From the NCBI GenBank assembly GCA_902785275.1, contig CACZYB010000011.1, forward strand, positions 1 through 20,734: DNA of 20,734 nucleotides, read 5' to 3'. The notes beneath the pieces are model-generated. The model searched no databases and was not told where the DNA came from. It worked only from the letters and a program-made list of their open reading frames with translations. Both the position numbers and the translations under genes were made by a program. This document shows positions 3,226 through 17,561 of the stretch, piece by piece (within the stretch, counting starts at the first letter, position 1; the number at the start of each line of letters is the position of its first letter). This stretch comes from an uncultured Pseudomonadota bacterium (GTDB taxonomy: Bacteria; Pseudomonadota; Alphaproteobacteria; Rs-D84; CACZYB01).

Positions 3226-3939
3226 TTAGTATCTTGGAGGTTGTCCAACACCATTTGAATTTGATTTATAATACATATTTGATGCATTACCTAAACCCAA
3301 TGAACCAGCAGCACTTTTATTTGAAGTATTCATTGCAGGAATACCACTTGTGTGTTGTTGATTATAGTTTTGTGGTTGTTGGTTATAACCACCTTGTTGT
3401 TGATAAACAGGTTGGTTATTTTGTTGCATATTCATATCAGCAGGTTGATTTTGATACCCACCTTGTTGTTGATTTGAATTTACACCATCACTATTGTTAT
3501 TTGCACTACGTTGACATCTCTTTGATGGAGATGGAGCCATAGAGATAATAACTGTTGTGCCACCACGGAAACCATTTGAAACAAGTTGAACTGTTGCAAC
3601 ACGGCAATTATATCTGTATGTCAAAACAGAGTTTGAACCACGAACAGATGTTAATTCTTTCCAGTTAAACTTTGGCATTTCTTCCATATAGAAATCAAAT
3701 ACACCAGAAACATTATATGGAGCATAGAATGTCATTTTTCCCATCCAATCTGTTTCACGACCGAACATCATACTTCTATCCAAGTCCATTTGTGAACCAT
3801 CTGGAATAGGAATATCAGAAAATTGCGAAAATGTATAAGGAAGTTCTTGAGACTTATCCTTTTTTAAATCTTGTGTATCTAATGCACAACCGGCAAGAAC
3901 TGCAGTCACTGCACACAATAAAGTTTGAAATTTTTTCAT
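3226..3939 (-). CDS. Putative lipoprotein of unknown function with Q/N-rich low-complexity C-terminal tail
   Basis: MKK + hydrophobic stretch + lipobox LAGC; globular N-domain (FSQFSDIPIP...VFDFYMEEMP); Q/N/G/Y-rich tail; AGGAG RBS. Confidence 0.85.
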   Translation of the reverse strand: MKKFQTLLCAVTAVLAGCALDTQDLKKDKSQELPYTFSQFSDIPIPDGSQMDLDRSMMFGRETDWMGKMTFYAPYNVSGVFDFYMEEMPKFNWKELTSVRGSNSVLTYRYNCRVATVQLVSNGFRGGTTVIISMAPSPSKRCQRSANNNSDGVNSNQQQGGYQNQPADMNMQQNNQPVYQQQGGYNQQPQNYNQQHTSGIPAMNTSNKSAAGSLGLGNASNMYYKSNSNGVGQPPRY

Positions 3940-11111: not shown

Positions 11112-12401
11112 ATGAAATCAAAATATTTAACAGTTGTTTTAACAATCATCGCATCTTTGTTGGTTGAGGATTCTCTTTACGCTAAAAGGACAACCAAAAC
11201 AACAAAGGGTTCTTCAAAACGTTCTGGTTCAAGTAAGAAAAAGAATACTACAGGTTCTTCAAAACGTTCTGGATCAAGCAAGAAAAAGAACACTACAGGT
11301 TCTTCAAAACGTTCTGCAAGTTCACAATCTGGCTTGAAAACAAAGTCTTCAAAACGTGCTGCATCAACTAATGCAAGACGTGCTTCTGCAACAACTGCAA
11401 ATGCAAGACGTGCAAGTGCAATCGCTGCAACAGCAAAGAAAGCTGCTGCTGCAAAAACAACAACTTCAACAGAAGAAAAGAAATCTGTTGAAAATCCATG
11501 TCCAATTGGAAAATTGTTAAAGAGAGGCTTTGATGAAAACGGAAACGAAGCTTATTTCAAAACAAAAACTGCAACATGTAATCCTCCTGAAAATACATCT
11601 GAAATTTCATGGAATATGAACGATGCTGAAAAACTAAAACAATATACTGTTAAAAAATCATGGATTTCTGAAGACGAAGCAGTTGCATTTGAATGCGAAA
11701 GTGGTACATTGCTTTACAAAAATGCTTGTGAATCATTCGAAAACTTCTGTCCTTTAAATGAAATTATTGAAAGAAGTGCTGAGAAAAAATACATCAATCC
11801 ATACACAGGTGAAAGCTGTGTTATAGGTAATGGTGTATCTGCAAAGAAAGTAACTGCAAGTGAAAACGATTCTGATATCGAAACAGGTAAAGCTTATCGT
11901 CTATCTTGCCCAGATAACTTCTACACAAATACTGAAAATTATGTTCAATGTGTTGCTTGTCCAAGTAACAAACCATACAGTACAAAAGGTTCAAATATTG
12001 GCGAAAAATCTTGTTTTGCTGGTACACCTACTGAATGTGAAGCTGGATCATGGATTGGTAATGGTGAAACAGAATGTAAGCCATACGCATCATATGAATT
12101 TACTGATATGACAATCCAAGATAACGGAACATTGGGTTATGGTTTATATGAAGTTGTTCCATCTGATGCCTCAAAGTGTAAAGACGGAACAAAAACTTCT
12201 CCATTTACAGTAAATGCAGATGCTCAAGCTAAATTTGCAAAGATTTCAAGCAACTCTGGAAGCTACTTTGCAATCAATGGTGAATTCGTTAAAACTTGTG
12301 AAGGTAGTAACGTAACATTCACTCTTAAAAAAGCAAATGGTTCTGAAGGTTTAAAAGACTCTGGAAAACAAGCTGAGAGTAAAACTAACACTTCAAAATA
12401 A
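11112..12401 (+). CDS. Secreted protein with basic K/R/S/A-rich repeat region and Cys-rich domains
   Basis: Signal-peptide-like N-terminus, ~100-aa basic low-complexity region, then 14 Cys; own promoter, RBS and terminator. Confidence 0.85.
   Translation: MKSKYLTVVLTIIASLLVEDSLYAKRTTKTTKGSSKRSGSSKKKNTTGSSKRSGSSKKKNTTGSSKRSASSQSGLKTKSSKRAASTNARRASATTANARRASAIAATAKKAAAAKTTTSTEEKKSVENPCPIGKLLKRGFDENGNEAYFKTKTATCNPPENTSEISWNMNDAEKLKQYTVKKSWISEDEAVAFECESGTLLYKNACESFENFCPLNEIIERSAEKKYINPYTGESCVIGNGVSAKKVTASENDSDIETGKAYRLSCPDNFYTNTENYVQCVACPSNKPYSTKGSNIGEKSCFAGTPTECEAGSWIGNGETECKPYASYEFTDMTIQDNGTLGYGLYEVVPSDASKCKDGTKTSPFTVNADAQAKFAKISSNSGSYFAINGEFVKTCEGSNVTFTLKKANGSEGLKDSGKQAESKTNTSK
11208..11316 (+). 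repeat. 45-bp in-frame tandem repeat (GSSKRSGSSKKKNTT x ~2.4)
   Basis: GGTTCTTCAAAACGTTCTG recurs at 11208, 11253 and 11298; units 1 and 2 differ only at synonymous positions. Confidence 0.95.
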
Positions 12402-12456: not shown

Positions 12457-12531
12457 CAAATTTTTAAAAATTCCCCTACCCTTAAAAATTTTTCTATGCT
12501 AAAATACATCATAAATAAAAAGGAGAATAAA

Positions 12532-13305
12532 ATGATTATCGCAACATTCAATGTAAATTCCGTACGTGCCCACCTTCCAAACATTCTTGATTGGATAAAG
12601 GAGTTTTCTCCTGATGTTATTTTAATGCAAGAAATAAAATGCGAAACAAACGTTTTCCCATATATGGAATTCGAAGATATCGGTTATAATGTAAAGGTTT
12701 TCGGCCAAAAATCATATAACGGTGTTGCTATTCTTTCACGCTATTCTATCGAAGATGTAACAGTTGGACTTCCAACCTTTACCGAAGATTCGCAATCTAG
12801 ATATATCGAAGCCATTATCGATGGTCACATCCGTGTCGCAAGTGTTTATGCCCCAAATGGCAATCCTGTTCCATCGGATAAATTCGAATATAAAAAAGAA
12901 TGGATGAAACGTTTCAATCAACACGTTCAAACATTACTAAAAAATGATGAAGGGTTAATCATAGGTGGCGATTTCAATGTTGCACTAACTGACCGCGAAA
13001 TCTATAATCCAAAGGCATTTATTGATGATGCAATAACCCAACCGGAATCAAGACAAGGTATGAAAGAGCTTTTCAATTTAGGTCTTTCAGATTGTTACCG
13101 AATTTTTAACCCTGATAACAATAAAGCATACACATATTTTGGTTATCGAGGAGGTTGTTTCCAAAAAGGTTATGGTATACTTCTTGATTACTTCTTGGTA
13201 AACAACAAAGCAAAAGATATTATCATAAACGCAGGGATAGATTTAAATCCACGTAGCAAAGAAAAACCATCCGACCACACCCCACTTTGGATAGAAATCA
13301 AATAG
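12532..13305 (+). CDS. xth: Exodeoxyribonuclease III / AP endonuclease
   Basis: IATFNVNS, PDVILMQEIK, GQKSYNGVAILS, VYAPNG, GDFNV, PSDHTP. Start moved to ATG 12532 (AAGGAG RBS) rather than 12496; TGCTAAAAT extended -10-like element at 12497-12505. Confidence 0.96.
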   Translation: MIIATFNVNSVRAHLPNILDWIKEFSPDVILMQEIKCETNVFPYMEFEDIGYNVKVFGQKSYNGVAILSRYSIEDVTVGLPTFTEDSQSRYIEAIIDGHIRVASVYAPNGNPVPSDKFEYKKEWMKRFNQHVQTLLKNDEGLIIGGDFNVALTDREIYNPKAFIDDAITQPESRQGMKELFNLGLSDCYRIFNPDNNKAYTYFGYRGGCFQKGYGILLDYFLVNNKAKDIIINAGIDLNPRSKEKPSDHTPLWIEIK

Positions 13306-13321
13306 TTTTTAAAATTTTCTA

Positions 13322-13350
13322 TTGCAAAAGTTTGCGAATCGTGATATTAT
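13322..13350 (+). promoter_or_regulatory. sigma70-type promoter facing into the 3' end of rppH
   Basis: TTGCAA, 17 bp, extended -10 TG-A-TATTAT; no protein-coding gene downstream on this strand. Confidence 0.65.
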
Positions 13351-13356
13351 AGTTAC

Positions 13357-13417
13357 ATACATTGATAGAAAAACAAACAACACTTTGGAAGGTTAAAATC
13401 TTTAAAGTGATTTTTTA
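13357..13417 (+). ncRNA. Putative ~60-nt small RNA (copy L)
   Basis: Lies between the promoter at 13322-13350 and hairpin 13381-13409 + T-run; a homologous copy is on the other side of rppH. Ends are inferred. Confidence 0.5.
13381..13417. terminator. Bidirectional terminator hairpin (ends putative sRNA L on + and rppH on -)
   Basis: CACTTTGGAAG-GTTAAAAT-CTTTAAAGTG followed by ATTTTTT on +; on - it is followed by TTGTTTGTTTTT. Confidence 0.7.
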
Positions 13418-13969
13418 TTTCTTAATACACTTTTTCGTAATATTTTTCGATTTCATAATATCTTCTAGGATAGGACGGATTTTCTTAATAACATTTCTAT
13501 AAACTTCACGTTTAAATGGAACAACCTTGTTTACTAAACTAAGTGAAAAATTACTCCACTCATAATCAACAAGTTCTTCATTTGGAATAGTAAATTCAGT
13601 TTCATCACCAAAATATTCAATCAAAAACCACTTTTGTATTTGGCCGTGAACATTTTTATAGTAATCATGATTTTTTTTCGAAAATTTCATTTCTGCAGGA
13701 AACTTATACGCACGCCAAACATTATCCTTATAGACAATCTTTGCGTTTTTTATACCTGTTTCTTCAAAAAGTTCTCGCATAACAGCGACATCAGTCGTTT
13801 CCCCAGTATCAACCCCACCCTGAGGAAATTGCCATCCATAGGTAATTTTTTTCTGATTTCTTTTTGTAAAAAGTACTTTTCCTTCGGAATTAAAAACAAT
13901 TATTCCAACATTTTTTCTGTAGGTACAACCATCAACTTCTATATATTCAGAATTATCTTTTTCGACCAT
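13415..13969 (-). CDS. rppH: RNA pyrophosphohydrolase (Nudix)
   Basis: YRKNVGI, WQFPQGG-x5-E-x6-MRELFEETG Nudix box, GQIQKWFL and VVPFKREVY RppH signatures. Start set to ATG 13969 with AAGGGG 7 nt upstream. Confidence 0.93.
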   Translation of the reverse strand: MVEKDNSEYIEVDGCTYRKNVGIIVFNSEGKVLFTKRNQKKITYGWQFPQGGVDTGETTDVAVMRELFEETGIKNAKIVYKDNVWRAYKFPAEMKFSKKNHDYYKNVHGQIQKWFLIEYFGDETEFTIPNEELVDYEWSNFSLSLVNKVVPFKREVYRNVIKKIRPILEDIMKSKNITKKCIKK

Positions 13970-13989
13970 TTTCAAACCCCTTTTAAAAT

Positions 13990-14056
13990 AAAAAATCCCT
14001 TTAATAGTAATCAGCTATCCAAAGAGGCAATATATTTTTCTTATTTTCAATGTCAT
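13990..14056 (-). ncRNA. Putative ~65-nt small RNA / terminating leader of rppH (copy R)
   Basis: Between promoter 14063-14091 and hairpin 13997-14026 (CTCTTTGGATAG-loop-CTATTAAAGGG on -) plus U-run 13990-13995, just ahead of the rppH RBS. Ends are inferred. Confidence 0.5.
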
Positions 14057-14062
14057 AACACT

Positions 14063-14091
14063 ATGATATCACGATTCGCAAATTTATGCAA
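14063..14091 (-). promoter_or_regulatory. sigma70-type promoter upstream of rppH
   Basis: On - strand: TTGCAT (14091-14086), 17 bp, extended -10 TG-A-TATCAT (hexamer 14068-14063). Confidence 0.65.
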
Positions 14092-14173
14092 GCACAAAAA
14101 TAAAATATCCTTGTTTTTTAGTAAAATATAGAGTAAAAATAACCAAATGAATAAATAATAGGAGTTATAAAAA

Positions 14174-14872
14174 ATGGAAGCATCAACTTTTTCGCTTTTT
14201 GGACTTTTTACCCAATCCGATTTAATGACAAGATTCGTTTCAATAATGCTTGTCCTTGGTTCAATCTATGCATGGGCTATTATCATTGAAAAGGTATTTA
14301 CCCTAAAGAAAATAAAGGCTCAAAGTTTTGCATTTGAAAAAAAGTTCTGGAGTGGTGGTTCATTAGAAGAACTTTTCACCGCACTAAAATCAAAAGCTGT
14401 TGACCCAATGGCTATTGTTTTTATCGCTGCGATGAAGGAATGGAAAAAATCATCTTCTCTTTTAAGAAGTAAAAACAATGCATCAAAAACCGCAAATCTT
14501 CATCAAAGAATTGAACGTGTGATGAGTATCACAATGGAACGTGAAATGGCAAAACTTGAACAAAGAATTGATTTCTTATCTATGATTGGAAGTATTGCTC
14601 CTCTTGTTGGACTTTTCGGTACAATTTGGGGTATTATGAGCAGCTTTTCAGCCATCGGTTCATCAAGCAGTACAACATTGGGCGTAATTGCACCTGGTAT
14701 TGCAACCGCACTTTCCACAACTGCACTTGGCTTGATTGTTGCAATTCCTGCTGTTATTGGATATAACAAAATAACAACAGATTTATCAAACTATGCAATG
14801 AAACTTGAATCATTTACTGGAGAATTCACTGCAATCATATCTCGTCAAATTGATGAAAATATTAACAGTTAA
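14174..14872 (+). CDS. tolQ: Tol-Pal/ExbB family proton channel TolQ
   Basis: FEKKFWSGGSLEEL, APLVGLFGTIWGIM, IAPGIA-x-ALSTTALGLIVAIPAV; first gene of a QRA cluster. Confidence 0.93.
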   Translation: MEASTFSLFGLFTQSDLMTRFVSIMLVLGSIYAWAIIIEKVFTLKKIKAQSFAFEKKFWSGGSLEELFTALKSKAVDPMAIVFIAAMKEWKKSSSLLRSKNNASKTANLHQRIERVMSITMEREMAKLEQRIDFLSMIGSIAPLVGLFGTIWGIMSSFSAIGSSSSTTLGVIAPGIATALSTTALGLIVAIPAVIGYNKITTDLSNYAMKLESFTGEFTAIISRQIDENINS

Positions 14873-14880
14873 GGTGTACT

Positions 14881-15297
14881 ATGATTGTAAAGAAATACAC
14901 AAAAATTGGTCACATAAAACCAGAAATTAATTTGACATCTATGATTGATGTTATGTGTATCTTAATGTCTGTTTTTATGGTTACTGCCCCTATGCTTACA
15001 ACAGGTATGAGTGTTGACCTTCCAAAGGGTGGCAAGTCCGCAATTGAAGGTGCAGAAAAGGCTGTCGACATAACAATTGATAAACTTGGCAACATTTACA
15101 TTGGTAAAGAAAAGGTTGCTCAAACAAAGCTTAAAACAAAGCTTGCATATATGCTTAAACAAAATCCAAAACTTTCAATTGTTATAAGTGGTGATTCAAA
15201 AACTCAGTATGGAAAAATTATTGAAGTTATGAGCAGTTTAAAAGAAGCTGGCTTTAAAAAAGTCGGACTTAAAACCGAACCAATAACAAAAAAATAA
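14881..15297 (+). CDS. tolR: TolR/ExbD family protein
   Basis: EINLTSMIDVM (conserved TM Asp), FMVTAPML, VDLP, GD...YGKIIEVM...AGFKKVGL. Confidence 0.92.
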   Translation: MIVKKYTKIGHIKPEINLTSMIDVMCILMSVFMVTAPMLTTGMSVDLPKGGKSAIEGAEKAVDITIDKLGNIYIGKEKVAQTKLKTKLAYMLKQNPKLSIVISGDSKTQYGKIIEVMSSLKEAGFKKVGLKTEPITKK

Positions 15298-15299
15298 AA

Positions 15300-16241
15300 A
15301 TGAAAAGAATAAGAATAAATTTTTACGAAGTATTAGGATTTTCCTTAATTCCACCTTTTTTAAGGGATGGCTTCGTTATATCAATTATTCTTCATCTTTT
15401 CTTTATTATGCTTATTATGGTAAGTCCATACATAAGGATTCATTCATTTATCCCAAGGGTAAAATACGACGAGCCAATAATCGTTGATTTGGAAAATTTA
15501 ATTATTGGAAAGGAAACAATTCTTCCACCATCCGCACCTGCCCCACAAAAGCAGGTCGAAAAAAAGGAAAAGGAGAAAGAATACGTTAAACCTACTGTAA
15601 AAAGTGAGGAACTTCCTCCACCACCTCCTACACCAAAGGAAACAAAAGAAGAAAAATCAAAGGATTCTTCTGGTGACTTTATTGAAGAAAAAGCAAAGAA
15701 AGAAGAAAAAGTTGAAAAACCAAGGGATATAAAGAAAGAGCGTATGGGCGGACTTGACAATCTTCTTGCATCCGTTGATGGTTTGAAACCTGATGAAAAA
15801 AAAGTAATTGAAAAAGAAAATCAAAAGCCAAAAGATGAAAAAGTTATTCCTTTGAAAAAAGGTATTGAAGCCGTTGATTTTGGAACTGATAACTATCAAA
15901 AAAATTCCGCATCTGACTTCTTAAAAAAGCAAATGGCTGTTTCTTATATTGACGCGATAAGAATAAAGCTTCGTTCATGTTGGAATTTGGATCCAGGTGC
16001 AAAGGATATAAAAAATATGAAAATTGTAATCCGCACATCCATTTCCCCAGACGGAAATATAAATGCTATTGAAATTTTAAACAAGGAAGAATATTTATCT
16101 TCACCATGGTTTAAGGCTGTTGCCGAAAGTGCAAAACGTGCACTTATAATCTGCAGTCCTTATAGCCTACCAATTGAATTTTATAAGGATTGGAAAGATA
16201 TTGTCTTTACATTCTACCCAGATAAAAAATCAGTACAATAA
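15300..16241 (+). CDS. tolA: TolA-like energy transducer
   Basis: TM anchor with S-x3-H (SIILH), Pro/Lys/Glu-rich linker, TonB/TolA-type C-domain (SCWN...PDG...AESAKRA...CSPY...W...FTF); follows tolQR. Confidence 0.8.
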   Translation: MKRIRINFYEVLGFSLIPPFLRDGFVISIILHLFFIMLIMVSPYIRIHSFIPRVKYDEPIIVDLENLIIGKETILPPSAPAPQKQVEKKEKEKEYVKPTVKSEELPPPPPTPKETKEEKSKDSSGDFIEEKAKKEEKVEKPRDIKKERMGGLDNLLASVDGLKPDEKKVIEKENQKPKDEKVIPLKKGIEAVDFGTDNYQKNSASDFLKKQMAVSYIDAIRIKLRSCWNLDPGAKDIKNMKIVIRTSISPDGNINAIEILNKEEYLSSPWFKAVAESAKRALIICSPYSLPIEFYKDWKDIVFTFYPDKKSVQ

Positions 16242-16253
16242 AGGAGGAATGCT

Positions 16254-17561
16254 GTGAAAAAAATCGTTTTAAAAAGACATCCTGAAAAAAAAGATTTTCT
16301 TGAAATCTTAGGTATTATTTTTCATAAGATTTTCAAGGAAAGAACTTTGATTTCAAATAAAAATGGTAGGTTCGTTTACTATCATTTTTCCCCTATTCTT
16401 CAATTTACAATTTTTACAACATTTGCTGCGCTTACCTATTGGACATTATTTACAACAAAAATTTATCTTTTAAACGTTGATACACTTAAGATAAAAGAAT
16501 CTCAAATTGTTGATGCAAGAAATAAGTTTAATCGTGTAATAGCCGATGTAAACGCATACAAAGATACAATTGCAGAAATAAACAAAAAATTGGAAACATC
16601 AAATACAAACATCTTAAACCTTTTGGAAAAAGATGAAAAAATTACCAAATTAGAAAAGGATACTTTGGTAAAAAACAGACTTCTTTTATCAACAGAACTT
16701 AATTATGTAAATAACAAGCTTACCGATTTTGCAAAAGGTGTTACATGGGCAAATGTTGATACAAAGGAACCTTTCTATAAAATAACCAAAAATGAATTAG
16801 AAAGAAACGTTGTCCTAAATGAAAATGTATACCTTAAAAAACAAAATAATCGTCTTGAAAAAACTTTGTCTGATATGAAACAACTTCAAGATAACATTAT
16901 TGATAAAGTTCAAGTTTTAGCAGACAATGGTATAAATGACATCGAAAATACTTTATCAAAGGTTGATATAATTCTTTCACAGGTACACCTTAAAAACAGG
17001 AATAATTTAATTAAAAAAGTTCAAAATGAAAAAGGTGAAGGTCTTGGTGGTAAATATATACCTCTAAAAGATATTGATCTAATGGATGAAGATTTGGATG
17101 CAAAATTCAAAAACCTAAATGTAAAGGTAAATCTTTGGGAAGGTTTATCAAAGGCCAAAACAATGCTTCCACTTGGTGCTCCTGTAAAAAAAGTTCGTAT
17201 AACCTCACCATACGGCATACGTCCAGATCCATTCTTTAAAACCCCTGCAATGCATACAGGTATTGATTTTGGTGGAAAAGAAGGAACTCCACTTTACTCA
17301 ACCGCTGCAGGTAAAGTTATACAGGCCGGCCCACGTGGTGATTATGGCCTAACCGTAGAAGTTGACCACGGACTTGGTTTCACAACTCTTTACGGACACC
17401 TAAGCAAAATTTCTGTTGAAAAAGGTGATATCATAGAAGAAGGTACAAAGGTTGGACTTGCCGGTTCAACAGGCCGAAGCACCGGTCCACACTTACACTA
17501 TGAGCTTCGCCATAACGCACACGCTTTAAACCCATACGCATTTATCAAAGTTGAAAATTAA
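16254..17561 (+). CDS. Membrane-anchored coiled-coil M23 family peptidoglycan endopeptidase (LmdC/Csd1-like)
   Basis: GTG start with AGGAGG RBS; one TM, long coiled coil, C-terminal M23 motifs HTGID and STGPHLHYE. Confidence 0.92.
   Translation: MKKIVLKRHPEKKDFLEILGIIFHKIFKERTLISNKNGRFVYYHFSPILQFTIFTTFAALTYWTLFTTKIYLLNVDTLKIKESQIVDARNKFNRVIADVNAYKDTIAEINKKLETSNTNILNLLEKDEKITKLEKDTLVKNRLLLSTELNYVNNKLTDFAKGVTWANVDTKEPFYKITKNELERNVVLNENVYLKKQNNRLEKTLSDMKQLQDNIIDKVQVLADNGINDIENTLSKVDIILSQVHLKNRNNLIKKVQNEKGEGLGGKYIPLKDIDLMDEDLDAKFKNLNVKVNLWEGLSKAKTMLPLGAPVKKVRITSPYGIRPDPFFKTPAMHTGIDFGGKEGTPLYSTAAGKVIQAGPRGDYGLTVEVDHGLGFTTLYGHLSKISVEKGDIIEEGTKVGLAGSTGRSTGPHLHYELRHNAHALNPYAFIKVEN

Follow-up and report, generated by a model that had tools for sequence, protein, structure and literature searches.

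Two homologous, inverted units that resemble small transcription units tightly enclose rppH, the gene for RNA pyrophosphohydrolase, in the DNA analyzed here (the window, 20,734 nucleotides). This arrangement raises the question of whether they form a regulatory module built around this gene, as a sequence-only reading had proposed, or belong to something more widely distributed.

Two units enclosing rppH

The two units occupy 13322-13421 on the forward strand and 14091-13985 on the reverse strand. In a repeat search, the longest inverted repeat of the window consisted of the arms 13322-13353 and 14060-14091 (32 nt, 91% complementary), and the position and homology of the units were as originally described, including a match of 29/32 between their promoter arms. 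The 17-mer TTTGCGAATCGTGATAT had exactly two mismatch-free occurrences in the window; with up to three mismatches allowed, three matches were found against 0.11 expected, a number reached in 0 of 100 shuffles. Homology between the left and right units extended along their entire length, with a mean column identity of 80% over 149 columns including flanks. The features of the locus are as follows, each with its basis.

12496..13305, + strand: xth (exodeoxyribonuclease III); gene calls, profile match
13322..13421, + strand: left unit, standalone type, with promoter, predicted RNA of ~64 nt and terminator; covariance model R1, 104.8 bits
13322..13350, + strand: left promoter, -35 TTGCAA (13322-13327), 17-nt spacer, TG (13342-13343), -10 TATTAT (13345-13350); promoter scan, alignment
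13357..13368, + strand: predicted +1 (A13357) and conserved 5' segment AUACAUUGAUAG, candidate seed; +1 placed by conservation
13381..13409, + strand: left hairpin, 12 pairs, one bulge, -7.2 kcal/mol; folding
13410..13421, + strand: left U tract ATTTTTTATTTC, overlapping the rppH stop codon (13415-13417); sequence
13415..13969, - strand: rppH (RNA pyrophosphohydrolase), ATG at 13969; NF001938
13977..13982, - strand: rppH ribosome-binding site (RBS) AAGGGG, two bases after the right U tract; sequence
13985..14091, - strand: right unit, rppH-leader type, with promoter, predicted RNA of ~72 nt and terminator; R1, 94.7 bits
13997..14026, - strand: right hairpin, -5.6 kcal/mol, followed by the U tract 13996-13985; folding
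14063..14091, - strand: right promoter, -35 TTGCAT (14091-14086), TG (14071-14070), -10 TATCAT (14068-14063); sequence, alignment
14174..14872, + strand: tolQ, divergent from the right unit, 82-nt gap; gene calls, profile match

Each unit contains a sigma-70-type promoter followed by a hairpin and a U tract, and the fit around rppH is as tight as had been noted, with the left U tract covering the stop codon and the right one ending just before the RBS. The right unit lies immediately upstream of rppH on the same strand; its promoter is weaker than that of the left unit and fell below the threshold of the promoter scan. The assignment of rppH was upheld by the profile NF001938 (RNA pyrophosphohydrolase; 142.4 bits, cut-off 116), and the window RppH aligned full-length with its orthologue from RGIG8969. 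The start of rppH is placed at TTG 13975 in the list of open reading frames. A deletion fusing rppH to the tail of a sulfatase-family gene was also considered and rejected, as RppH aligns to the orthologue through its last residues. The xth gene ends 16 nt before the left -35 element, and no terminator of its own lies between it and the left unit. The left hairpin sits where terminators of xth and rppH would be needed; on the reverse strand it is followed by a U-rich run, UGUUGUUUGUUUUU, which is not conserved in the other copies.

Distribution of the units

A genome scan brought the total to ten units, namely the window pair and eight units in four other metagenome-assembled genome (MAG) assemblies. 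The copies per assembly (two in the window, three in E19__bin253 [L001 and two in L006], two in RGIG8969, and two in Mgla_MAG_30-bin_7) are minimum numbers, as the scan relied on a perfect match of 19 bases. The covariance model R1 scored the ten units at 94.7-118.1 bits, and the next best match in 55,176 bases reached 20.6 bits; with filters off, R1 revealed no further diverged copy over the 55 kb of window and loci. Two loci, L003 (Erysipelotrichaceae) and L007 (Agathobacter), were discarded as chance matches to the promoter core only (17.9 and 20.6 bits, respectively).

All ten units are intergenic, and eight of them lie tail to tail with a convergent gene, facing its 3' end; rppH is preceded by the right window unit and its counterpart L002 only. 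Elsewhere, the neighbors include secG, a MerR-family gene, an NrtR-like Nudix gene, a ComM-like gene, and lipoprotein-like genes. In RGIG8969, the closest relative, two copies 2.7 kb apart enclose rppH together with a 655-codon sulfatase-family gene. The idea of a module built around rppH was thus not borne out, since the same unit stands beside unrelated genes in other MAG assemblies.

The RNA family had not been recognized from the sequence, and the Rfam scan likewise gives no known family for the units: Rfam 15 yielded no gathering-score match in the window, and at E <= 10 over 13200-14200 only sub-gathering noise was obtained, with no bacterial small RNA. Across seven loci at E <= 1, the only match was a tRNA in L008. 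The left unit had no blastn match in plasmid and phage collections. In the literature, we found neither the motif string nor a report of a small RNA upstream of rppH, nor any work joining RF32, Alphaproteobacteria, and sRNA, and the literature listings held nothing specific on an rppH leader.

Conservation and origin of the copies

The right unit agrees with its orthologue (L002 1992-2097) at 91 of 104 aligned bases, and the left unit with L004 at 94 of 99. As a baseline, the four-fold degenerate sites of tolQ and tolR, the only two genes counted, are identical at 77 of 150 positions (51%) in the same genome pair. Judged by this comparison (88-95% against 51%), the orthologous units are under purifying selection. 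The intergenic stretch between tolQ and the right unit is also similar in RGIG8969 (66 of 79 aligned bases identical). Among paralogues, L006a and L006b have 153 nt in common and adjoin genes for paralogous proteins (28% identity); for L008 and L009, the common stretch is 176 nt. Such paralogues were copied together with the neighboring gene, which indicates an origin by duplication and not by transposition.

Anatomy of the predicted RNA

The predicted transcripts are 62-72 nt long, and their segments have been conserved to very different degrees. The discriminator (columns 30-35) has no invariant column among six and a mean pairwise identity of 61%, while the 12 columns that follow include six invariant ones and reach 82%. 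Identity is 43% in the linker and 74% in the hairpin, and the U tract, AUUUUUUAU, is invariant in 8/8 columns. Conservation is thus low in the 6-nt discriminator and returns precisely at the predicted +1, and this segment pattern fits the order of promoter, +1, and RNA expected for a transcription unit. In the right unit, the predicted +1 is A14056, so its RNA would begin with AUG.

Both window hairpins still pair despite their divergence, as had been observed, with pairing kept through changes on both sides. The ten-unit alignment demonstrates the same for the family: 88.9% of the cells of the 12 pairs are paired, and three pairs have changed on both sides (A-U to U-G, A-U to U-A, and G-C to A-U). 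The covariation score of the hairpin was reached by 0 of 500 shuffles, and sliding the pairing partners left only 29-60% of cells paired; the covariation counts do not represent independent events, as the ten copies, which come from five genomes, fall into no more than about six different hairpin types. The hairpins are weak, with energies for the hairpin alone of -4.4 to -9.7 kcal/mol across the units, whereas a canonical terminator of the window reaches -14.5. Whole-RNA folding z-scores of -1.5 (left) and -0.8 (right) are not significant alone. The 5' segment is unpaired in most predicted folds.

No convincing coding potential was found in the units. A forward-strand reading frame in the standalone copies was rejected by eye, as the linker indels are not multiples of three and AUG is absent. 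When the window and loci were searched for sequences complementary to the 5' segment (CTATCAATGTAT, two mismatches allowed), only the units themselves and a few two-mismatch sites inside genes came up, and a comparison of the two 5' regions with 19 start regions in the window by duplex energy gave a best z of -2.25; no target of the 5' segment was found in the 55 kb examined.

Promoter and putative regulator site

Every unit has its own predicted promoter directly upstream in intergenic sequence (TTGCAA-17-TG-n-TATTAT, a consensus match only), and the pattern across the family is TTGCAA, a 17-nt spacer, and TG-n-TAT(T/C)AT. The -35 region (columns 1-9 of alignment A3), which lies outside the search pattern, is kept in 10/10 units. 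The apparent invariance of columns 10-29 is partly artefactual, because 7/8 of the additional copies were recovered through a perfect match to 19 bases of the promoter; L006b, the sole copy found without the search pattern, has three mismatches in these columns. Within the spacer, TTGC[A/G]AA occurs twice at 10-bp spacing, an arrangement equally readable as the inverted repeat GCAAA-N2-TTTGC. As this conservation exceeds what RNA polymerase needs, a shared regulator probably binds there. To our knowledge, none of the sigma-54, EcfG, FixK/Fnr, PurR-box, or dif/Xer motifs fits the unit promoter well enough to be claimed.

A family of sibling small-RNA genes as the favored explanation

Our data are best explained if the units are paralogous members of a small-RNA gene family with a shared, probably regulated promoter in AT-rich uncultured gut Alphaproteobacteria, a reading to which we assign a probability of roughly 0.55 on the evidence of comparative sequence analysis. 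A near-consensus sigma-70 promoter with an extended -10 element (TG-n-TATTAT) would drive each unit as an independent transcription unit, and a conserved A, seven bases past the -10, is its predicted start. The resulting RNA would begin with a conserved single-stranded 5' end, AUAC[A/U]UUGAU, as candidate seed, continue through an A-rich linker that evolves fast and a 12-bp hairpin with a bulge, and finish with AUUUUUUAU; it may act in trans by base pairing. Most copies lie tail to tail with a neighbor, and the unit hairpin probably terminates that gene as well; in the window, the left hairpin probably serves both xth on the forward strand and rppH on the reverse strand. The right copy would at the same time be the 5' leader of rppH: as it fills the interval from the sole conserved promoter of rppH to the RBS, on the same strand, it is a leader of this gene as much as a separate RNA gene. 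Expression of rppH might then depend on the family promoter and on read-through of the weak terminator, which would place RppH under the same control as the small RNAs. Most likely, the units represent an unnamed small-RNA family of a familiar kind and not an rppH-specific device.

Several of these observations could also be accommodated by action in cis only, with a regulated promoter and a leaky terminator whose short RNA is a by-product. At rppH, the unit would then be an attenuator-type leader that sets expression of the gene, and elsewhere read-through would run antisense into the convergent gene (from the left unit into rppH), resulting in interference or antisense control by the same regulator. 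Read-through is plausible given the weak hairpins, 8/10 units are directed into a convergent gene from its 3' end, and both the right unit and L002 separate the sole conserved promoter from the rppH RBS; an internal ATGACA-16-TATATT site in the window has no counterpart visible by eye in L002. The rppH-type copies also begin with AUG and carry an open frame of 13 or 14 codons running into the hairpin. However, an indel shifts this frame, so that the encoded peptide is not conserved, and by our estimate an open frame of 13 codons is expected by chance in about one of three cases at this base composition. The minimum-free-energy folds of the two rppH-type leaders contain neither antiterminator pairing nor a helix competing for the terminator arm, no Rfam riboswitch matched, and the placement typical of an attenuator or riboswitch (promoter, unit, and co-directional gene) is seen in 2/10 units (the right unit and L002) and not in the other eight. 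A by-product RNA would moreover leave unexplained why the 5' segment and hairpin loops are conserved between orthologues whose four-fold sites are 51% identical, and the convergent genes are functionally unrelated. We therefore regard action in cis alone as rather unlikely. A role mainly as a DNA site, either an operator or a nucleoid-protein site for the divergent neighbor with ordinary terminators as hairpins and no dedicated RNA, appears distinctly less probable still. It would account for a spacer conserved beyond promoter needs with its direct or inverted repeat, for a divergent gene 28-440 nt from the -35 in 7/10 units, and for conservation of the entire divergent intergenic region in L008 and L009. 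Yet the genes on the divergent side are not related to one another (tolQ, a CoA-transferase gene, lipoprotein-like genes, and hypothetical genes), and similarity between genomes forms a single block of ~100 nt, bounded exactly by the -35 and the U tract and constant in orientation and spacing, which a transcription unit fits better than an operator that happens to be close to a terminator.

The units might alternatively encode a small protein on the opposite strand (..Y-I-I-S-R-F-A-N-F-C..), whose frame 0 is open for at least 25 codons in 10/10 copies, with an ATG start at the same place in five copies and another in-frame ATG in the right unit. This was rejected as very improbable after examination of all copies in three frames: an in-frame ATG is missing in 4/10 (L001, L006a, L006b, and L002), no Shine-Dalgarno sequence lies upstream, and the C-terminal tails are unrelated and of 4-22 residues. 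The codons TCA, CGA, and GCA have not varied synonymously at their four-fold sites, an invariance due partly to the search pattern, whereas the changes that are seen are non-synonymous (N/K, A-N to V-D, and F to L); the same bases form a near-consensus promoter on the other strand. A MITE-like or other selfish dispersed repeat without host function, which had been named among the outcomes that could overturn the small-RNA interpretation, would be in keeping with the presence of several copies in one genome, in either orientation and at loci that are not related. We consider it hardly credible, as terminal inverted repeats are absent (the ends of a unit agree at 4-7 of 20 ungapped positions) and no target-site duplications were found: in 8/10 units there are no flanking direct repeats beyond chance, and the two best, of 4-5 nt, were reached by 32 and 18 of 300 shuffles. 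The exact-match scan showed only two or three copies per assembly, as lower bounds, and R1 none further in 55 kb; plasmid and phage collections gave no match, and the units hold orthologous positions with high sequence conservation across species, their paralogues having arisen via segmental duplication with a neighboring gene.

Relation to known systems

Sibling small RNAs are familiar in Proteobacteria, for instance Qrr1-5, OmrA/B, and PrrF1/2, and NgncR_162/163 of Neisseria are reportedly of this type. Like them, the units comprise at least two paralogous short RNAs with a common promoter type, a conserved single-stranded candidate seed, and an intrinsic terminator, all of these predicted here. 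They differ in matching no Rfam model, in being dispersed or inverted around a gene and not simply tandem, and in that one unit doubles as an mRNA leader. Bidirectional intrinsic terminators also occur between convergent genes, and the left hairpin is comparable to these, situated between convergent xth and rppH with a U tract on the forward strand and the U-rich run UGUUGUUUGUUUUU on the reverse strand. Unlike the units, a plain terminator has neither a promoter 35 nt upstream nor a conserved 5' segment.

In anatomy and copy number, the units resemble the csRNAs of streptococci, which have a conserved CiaR-dependent intergenic promoter followed by a terminator, RNAs of 51-202 nt, two to six per genome, and an RNA body more variable than the promoter (PMC3091779). 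The CiaR box, TTTAAG-N5-TTTAAG, lies ten bases upstream of the csRNA -10 (PMC3091779). The units come from a different phylum and have no sequence homology with the csRNAs as described there, with TTGCAAAAG-TTTGCGAATCGTGATAT in place of the TTTAAG-N5-TTTAAG promoter. Membership in the csRNA family was ruled out on the same description, because the unit promoter reads TTGCAAAAGTTTGCGAATCGTGATAT and has no CiaR box; a unit is predicted to work like a csRNA gene. For the right, rppH-leader copy, the nearest precedent is the alphaproteobacterial rnTrpL of Sinorhizobium meliloti, a trans-acting RNA released at a terminator in a 5' leader (PMC6614838). rnTrpL derives from an attenuator that depends on the ribosome and has both a conserved leader peptide and alternative structures. 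Neither feature was found in the rppH-type leaders, and 8/10 units are not leaders at all.

Possible link to RNA decay

The rppH-leader copy invites a further reading, which we put forward as conjecture and consider improbable. The family promoter would be the operator of one regulator that induces the sibling small RNAs and, via the leaky unit copy, RppH, thereby acting as a pulse generator: the RNA would be induced first, and RppH, delayed by terminator read-through, would limit the lifetime of the RNA and its targets. With the AUG gained at its predicted +1, the rppH-linked copy might also be a leaderless-peptide attenuator. RppH removes the 5' triphosphate of RNA and thus starts 5'-end-dependent decay.

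If the small-RNA prediction holds, the units would be the first candidate regulatory RNA family for poorly known uncultured AT-rich gut Alphaproteobacteria, with a promoter motif sharp enough for computational definition of a regulon. The rppH-leader copy would then tie expression of an initiator of RNA decay to a small-RNA signal, a wiring that is testable. Such a family would overturn nothing; as promoter-plus-terminator families of sibling small RNAs are well known, its main value would be as an annotation and a lead to regulation in this clade.

Two of the copies lie within 0.5-0.8 kb of rnc (L005) and an RNase E/G gene (L009), positions that were noticed post hoc and would fit a link with RNA decay.

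Results

Paired units around rppH

The gene between the two units encodes an RNA pyrophosphohydrolase (NF001938; 142.4 bits, NCBIfam cut-off 116), with xth upstream (+) and tolQ-tolR-tolA downstream (+). The inverted homologous pair described around it in the sequence-only reading was recovered by the repeat search (arms 13322-13353 and 14060-14091). It ranked first by length among the window's inverted repeats, its arms being 32 nt with 91% complementarity, in agreement with the reported 29/32 match of the promoter parts.

13322-13421 (+): left unit, W_left; predicted promoter TTGCAA, 17-nt spacer, TATTAT, with TG one base upstream making an extended -10 (promoter scan); predicted +1, an A 7 bases past the -10, at 13357 (+); 64 nt from there to the U-tract end; hairpin -7.2 kcal/mol
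13985-14091 (-): right unit, W_right; predicted promoter TTGCAT and TATCAT, scoring under the promoter-scan threshold; predicted +1, likewise an A 7 bases past the -10, at 14056 (-); 72 nt; hairpin -5.6 kcal/mol

Two exact copies of the 17-base core TTTGCGAATCGTGATAT are present in the window; allowing as many as three mismatches brings the count to 3, with 0.11 expected and no shuffle out of 100 attaining 3. In same-orientation alignment, the likeness of the units extends beyond the promoter-like arms: both contain the -35, spacer, -10, ACATTGA, CTTTGGA, TTAAAG-GATTTTTTATTT and an intervening stem-loop, and RNA folding yielded a bulged hairpin followed by AUUUUUUAU in both predicted RNAs. The hairpins are weak compared with the canonical terminator behind a 429-codon ORF within the window (-14.5 kcal/mol), and the folding z-scores of the whole predicted RNAs (-1.5 left, -0.8 right) are not significant alone. 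As had been described, the units end tightly on rppH, with its stop codon under the left U tract and the right U tract stopping 2 bases before the RBS. For xth, which lacks a terminator of its own, and for rppH, the left hairpin occupies the position at which termination is needed; its minus-strand side is followed by UGUUGUUUGUUUUU. The RppH alignment to the orthologue of the closest relative, the Alphaproteobacteria MAG RGIG8969, extends to the last residues.

Family members in other genomes

Relatives were sought across genome contigs with a promoter-core pattern of 19 specified bases, an exact match being demanded, so that copies per genome are lower bounds. Two of the nine loci returned, one in an Erysipelotrichaceae genome and the other in a MAG of Agathobacter, have only the core in common (17.9 and 20.6 bits with the covariance model described below) and were set aside as chance matches. 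The remaining seven carry eight full units, the window's own genome not being among the sources:

MAG E19__bin253, labelled uncultured Alphaproteobacteria: L001 (convergent gene hypothetical) and two units in L006, L006a (lipoprotein-like) and L006b (MerR-family)
MAG RGIG8969: L002 (co-directional with rppH) and L004 (convergent gene sulfatase-family)
Contig CAYJFW010000031.1, 5949 bases, in a MAG labelled Bacteroidales, a binning that may be wrong: L005 (convergent gene ComM-like)
MAG Mgla_MAG_30-bin_7: L008 (convergent gene NrtR-like Nudix) and L009 (secG), 56 kb apart

The ten units were used to build a covariance model, which scored them at 94.7-118.1 bits, and the search for further copies with this model, filters off, returned nothing else above 20.6 bits in 55,176 bases. 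Cross-genome similarity is confined to about 100 nt, from the -35 through the U tract. The locus orthologous to that of the window is L002 (tolA-tolR-tolQ-unit-rppH), with 80.9% identity across 2687 aligned columns.

Every one of the ten units lies between genes, and eight are directed towards a convergent gene from its 3′ side, that gene being rppH itself for W_left; a co-directional downstream gene, rppH in both cases, was found only for W_right and L002. The RGIG8969 pair lies 2.7 kb apart and encloses a 655-codon sulfatase-family gene in addition to rppH. The window's tight bracketing of rppH is therefore a local, unconserved arrangement, and the earlier idea of a module built around rppH was not supported. 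In both species the convergent gene's stop codon lies within the A run opposite the U tract (L004 1929-1935; window 13415-13421), even though the window has rppH at this place and RGIG8969 a sulfatase-family gene. An RNase III gene (L005 2519-3226, -) and an RNase E/G gene (L009 2811-4019, -) lie 0.5 and 0.8 kb from their units, each with one hypothetical gene between; together with rppH this makes three genes of RNA decay in the vicinity of six independent loci, a non-adjacent, post hoc pattern that may be coincidence.

Duplication and conservation

Within genomes, the copies were duplicated along with the adjoining divergent gene. L006a and L006b have 153 nt in common, beside flanking paralogous proteins 28% identical, and L008 and L009 have 176 nt in common, beside divergent genes 22% identical (E=0.006), plus a 65-nt terminator segment of 98% identity (L008 2830-2894; L009 2752-2816). 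In the MAG of these two loci, Mgla_MAG_30-bin_7 (L008/L009 1912-2085: unit and divergent 5′ region in common), the non-coding flanks are far better preserved than the protein-coding gene between them. A MITE had been named as a possible alternative; terminal inverted repeats and target-site duplications were not found at the units, nor was the unit matched in plasmid and phage sequence collections. Together with the co-duplication, this indicates that the units behave as a gene family and not as a mobile repeat, a selfish element being a very remote prospect.

The promoter columns (23/29 invariant, 94% mean pairwise identity) are inflated partly by the search, as, of the eight extra copies, seven came from an exact match to alignment columns 10-29, where identity is partly by construction. 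Independently of the pattern, the 29/32 agreement of W_left and W_right stands, the -35 and next three bases are retained in all ten units, and L006b, detected solely through adjoining L006a, retains CGAATCGTGATAT with three changes just upstream. The figures for the other segments are also independent of the pattern: no invariant column and 61% mean pairwise identity in the six bases past the -10, six invariant and 82% in the next twelve columns from the predicted +1, 43% with indels in the linker, 74% in the hairpin, and 8/8 invariant columns in the U tract. The suggestion that hairpin pairing is kept despite sequence divergence was supported (88.9% of cells paired, three pairs altered on both sides, in a hand-set 12-pair structure). 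None of 500 shuffles equalled the observed covariation score, and shifted partners lowered pairing to 29-60%; with about six hairpin types among the ten rows, the independent events are few. In the comparison of the window with RGIG8969, identity is 91/104 aligned bases for the right units and 94/99 for left-type units, versus 77/150 for four-fold degenerate sites in tolQ and tolR, so purifying selection acts on the units, loops included.

Coding potential

A single opposite-strand frame (..YIISRFANFC.. across the promoter block) is open in 10/10 copies. As a gene it was rejected: four copies have no ATG, a Shine-Dalgarno sequence is absent, the tails are unrelated, and the substitutions are all non-synonymous with four-fold sites invariant (partly a search-pattern effect). 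Such a small ORF is therefore highly improbable as the explanation of the units. On the forward strand, standalone copies lack an AUG, and linker indels break every frame. In the rppH-linked copies an extra G creates an AUG at the predicted +1, opening 13 codons in W_right (window 14056-14015, -) and 14 in L002 (2027-2071, +) into the terminator hairpin, a length expected by chance about 1 in 3 times; the peptides diverge after about five residues through an indel frame shift.

Discussion

Our data are best read as a family of sibling small-RNA genes (probability roughly 0.55). The predicted family promoter would be strong and probably regulated, and its spacer contains TTGC[A/G]AA twice at 10-bp spacing (alternatively GCAAA-N2-TTTGC), as a putative bound regulator would need. 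The unpaired conserved 5′ end is a candidate seed, and the rest of the RNA would comprise a free-running linker, the terminator hairpin and a U tail. Searches of the 55 kb of window and loci gave no target. The closest working analogue is provided by the streptococcal csRNA genes, which are reported to have been found through an intergenic conserved regulator-dependent promoter followed by a terminator, with RNAs of 51-202 nt and two to six genes per genome (PMC3091779).

W_right doubles as the predicted rppH leader. Its internal promoter-like site is not visible in the orthologue L002, so the conserved route to rppH expression would start at the family promoter and read through the weak terminator. 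The nearest precedent is rnTrpL of Sinorhizobium (PMC6614838); unlike that case, no leader peptide was evident here, nor any antiterminator in the RNA folds of the rppH leader.

Purely cis-acting units, with the promoter and leaky terminator serving as an attenuator at rppH and, for the other units, as a source of antisense transcripts, would be consistent with the weak hairpins and the convergent genes; set beside the conservation from the predicted +1, this is unlikely. Still less credit is due to a DNA site lying near terminators by chance, with which the spacer repeat would agree, and beside which stands the single block of cross-genome similarity from the -35 through the U tract. The sibling small-RNA reading thus keeps the observation of the sequence-only reading, which was confirmed, and part of its interpretation, the rppH-centred module being unsupported. 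In our searches of the literature, the promoter motif appeared in no paper, no small RNA was described upstream of rppH or from RF32-type Alphaproteobacteria, and nothing specific stood among the papers listed on rppH leaders. The family is unnamed and new, and its kind is already well known; its value lies chiefly in annotation for an uncultured clade and in a link of rppH to the family promoter that can be tested.

Further features of the window are as follows.

3226-3939 (-): 237-codon ORF without an NCBIfam match, with 31-nt internal repeats at 3353-3473
13634-14131 (+): 165-codon ORF antisense to rppH, ending in the opposite-strand frame of W_right; most likely a shadow ORF
14174-17561 (+): tolQ-tolR-tolA, followed by a 435-codon protein and not tolB-pal; the sole matches of this protein, at C-terminal residues 311-433, are to the M23 peptidase domain
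11112-12401 (+): the 429-codon ORF, matched by no NCBIfam model
11208-11387, within the 429-codon ORF: tandem 45-nt repeats, with three near-identical cores of 19 nt spaced 45 nt apart and degenerate copies
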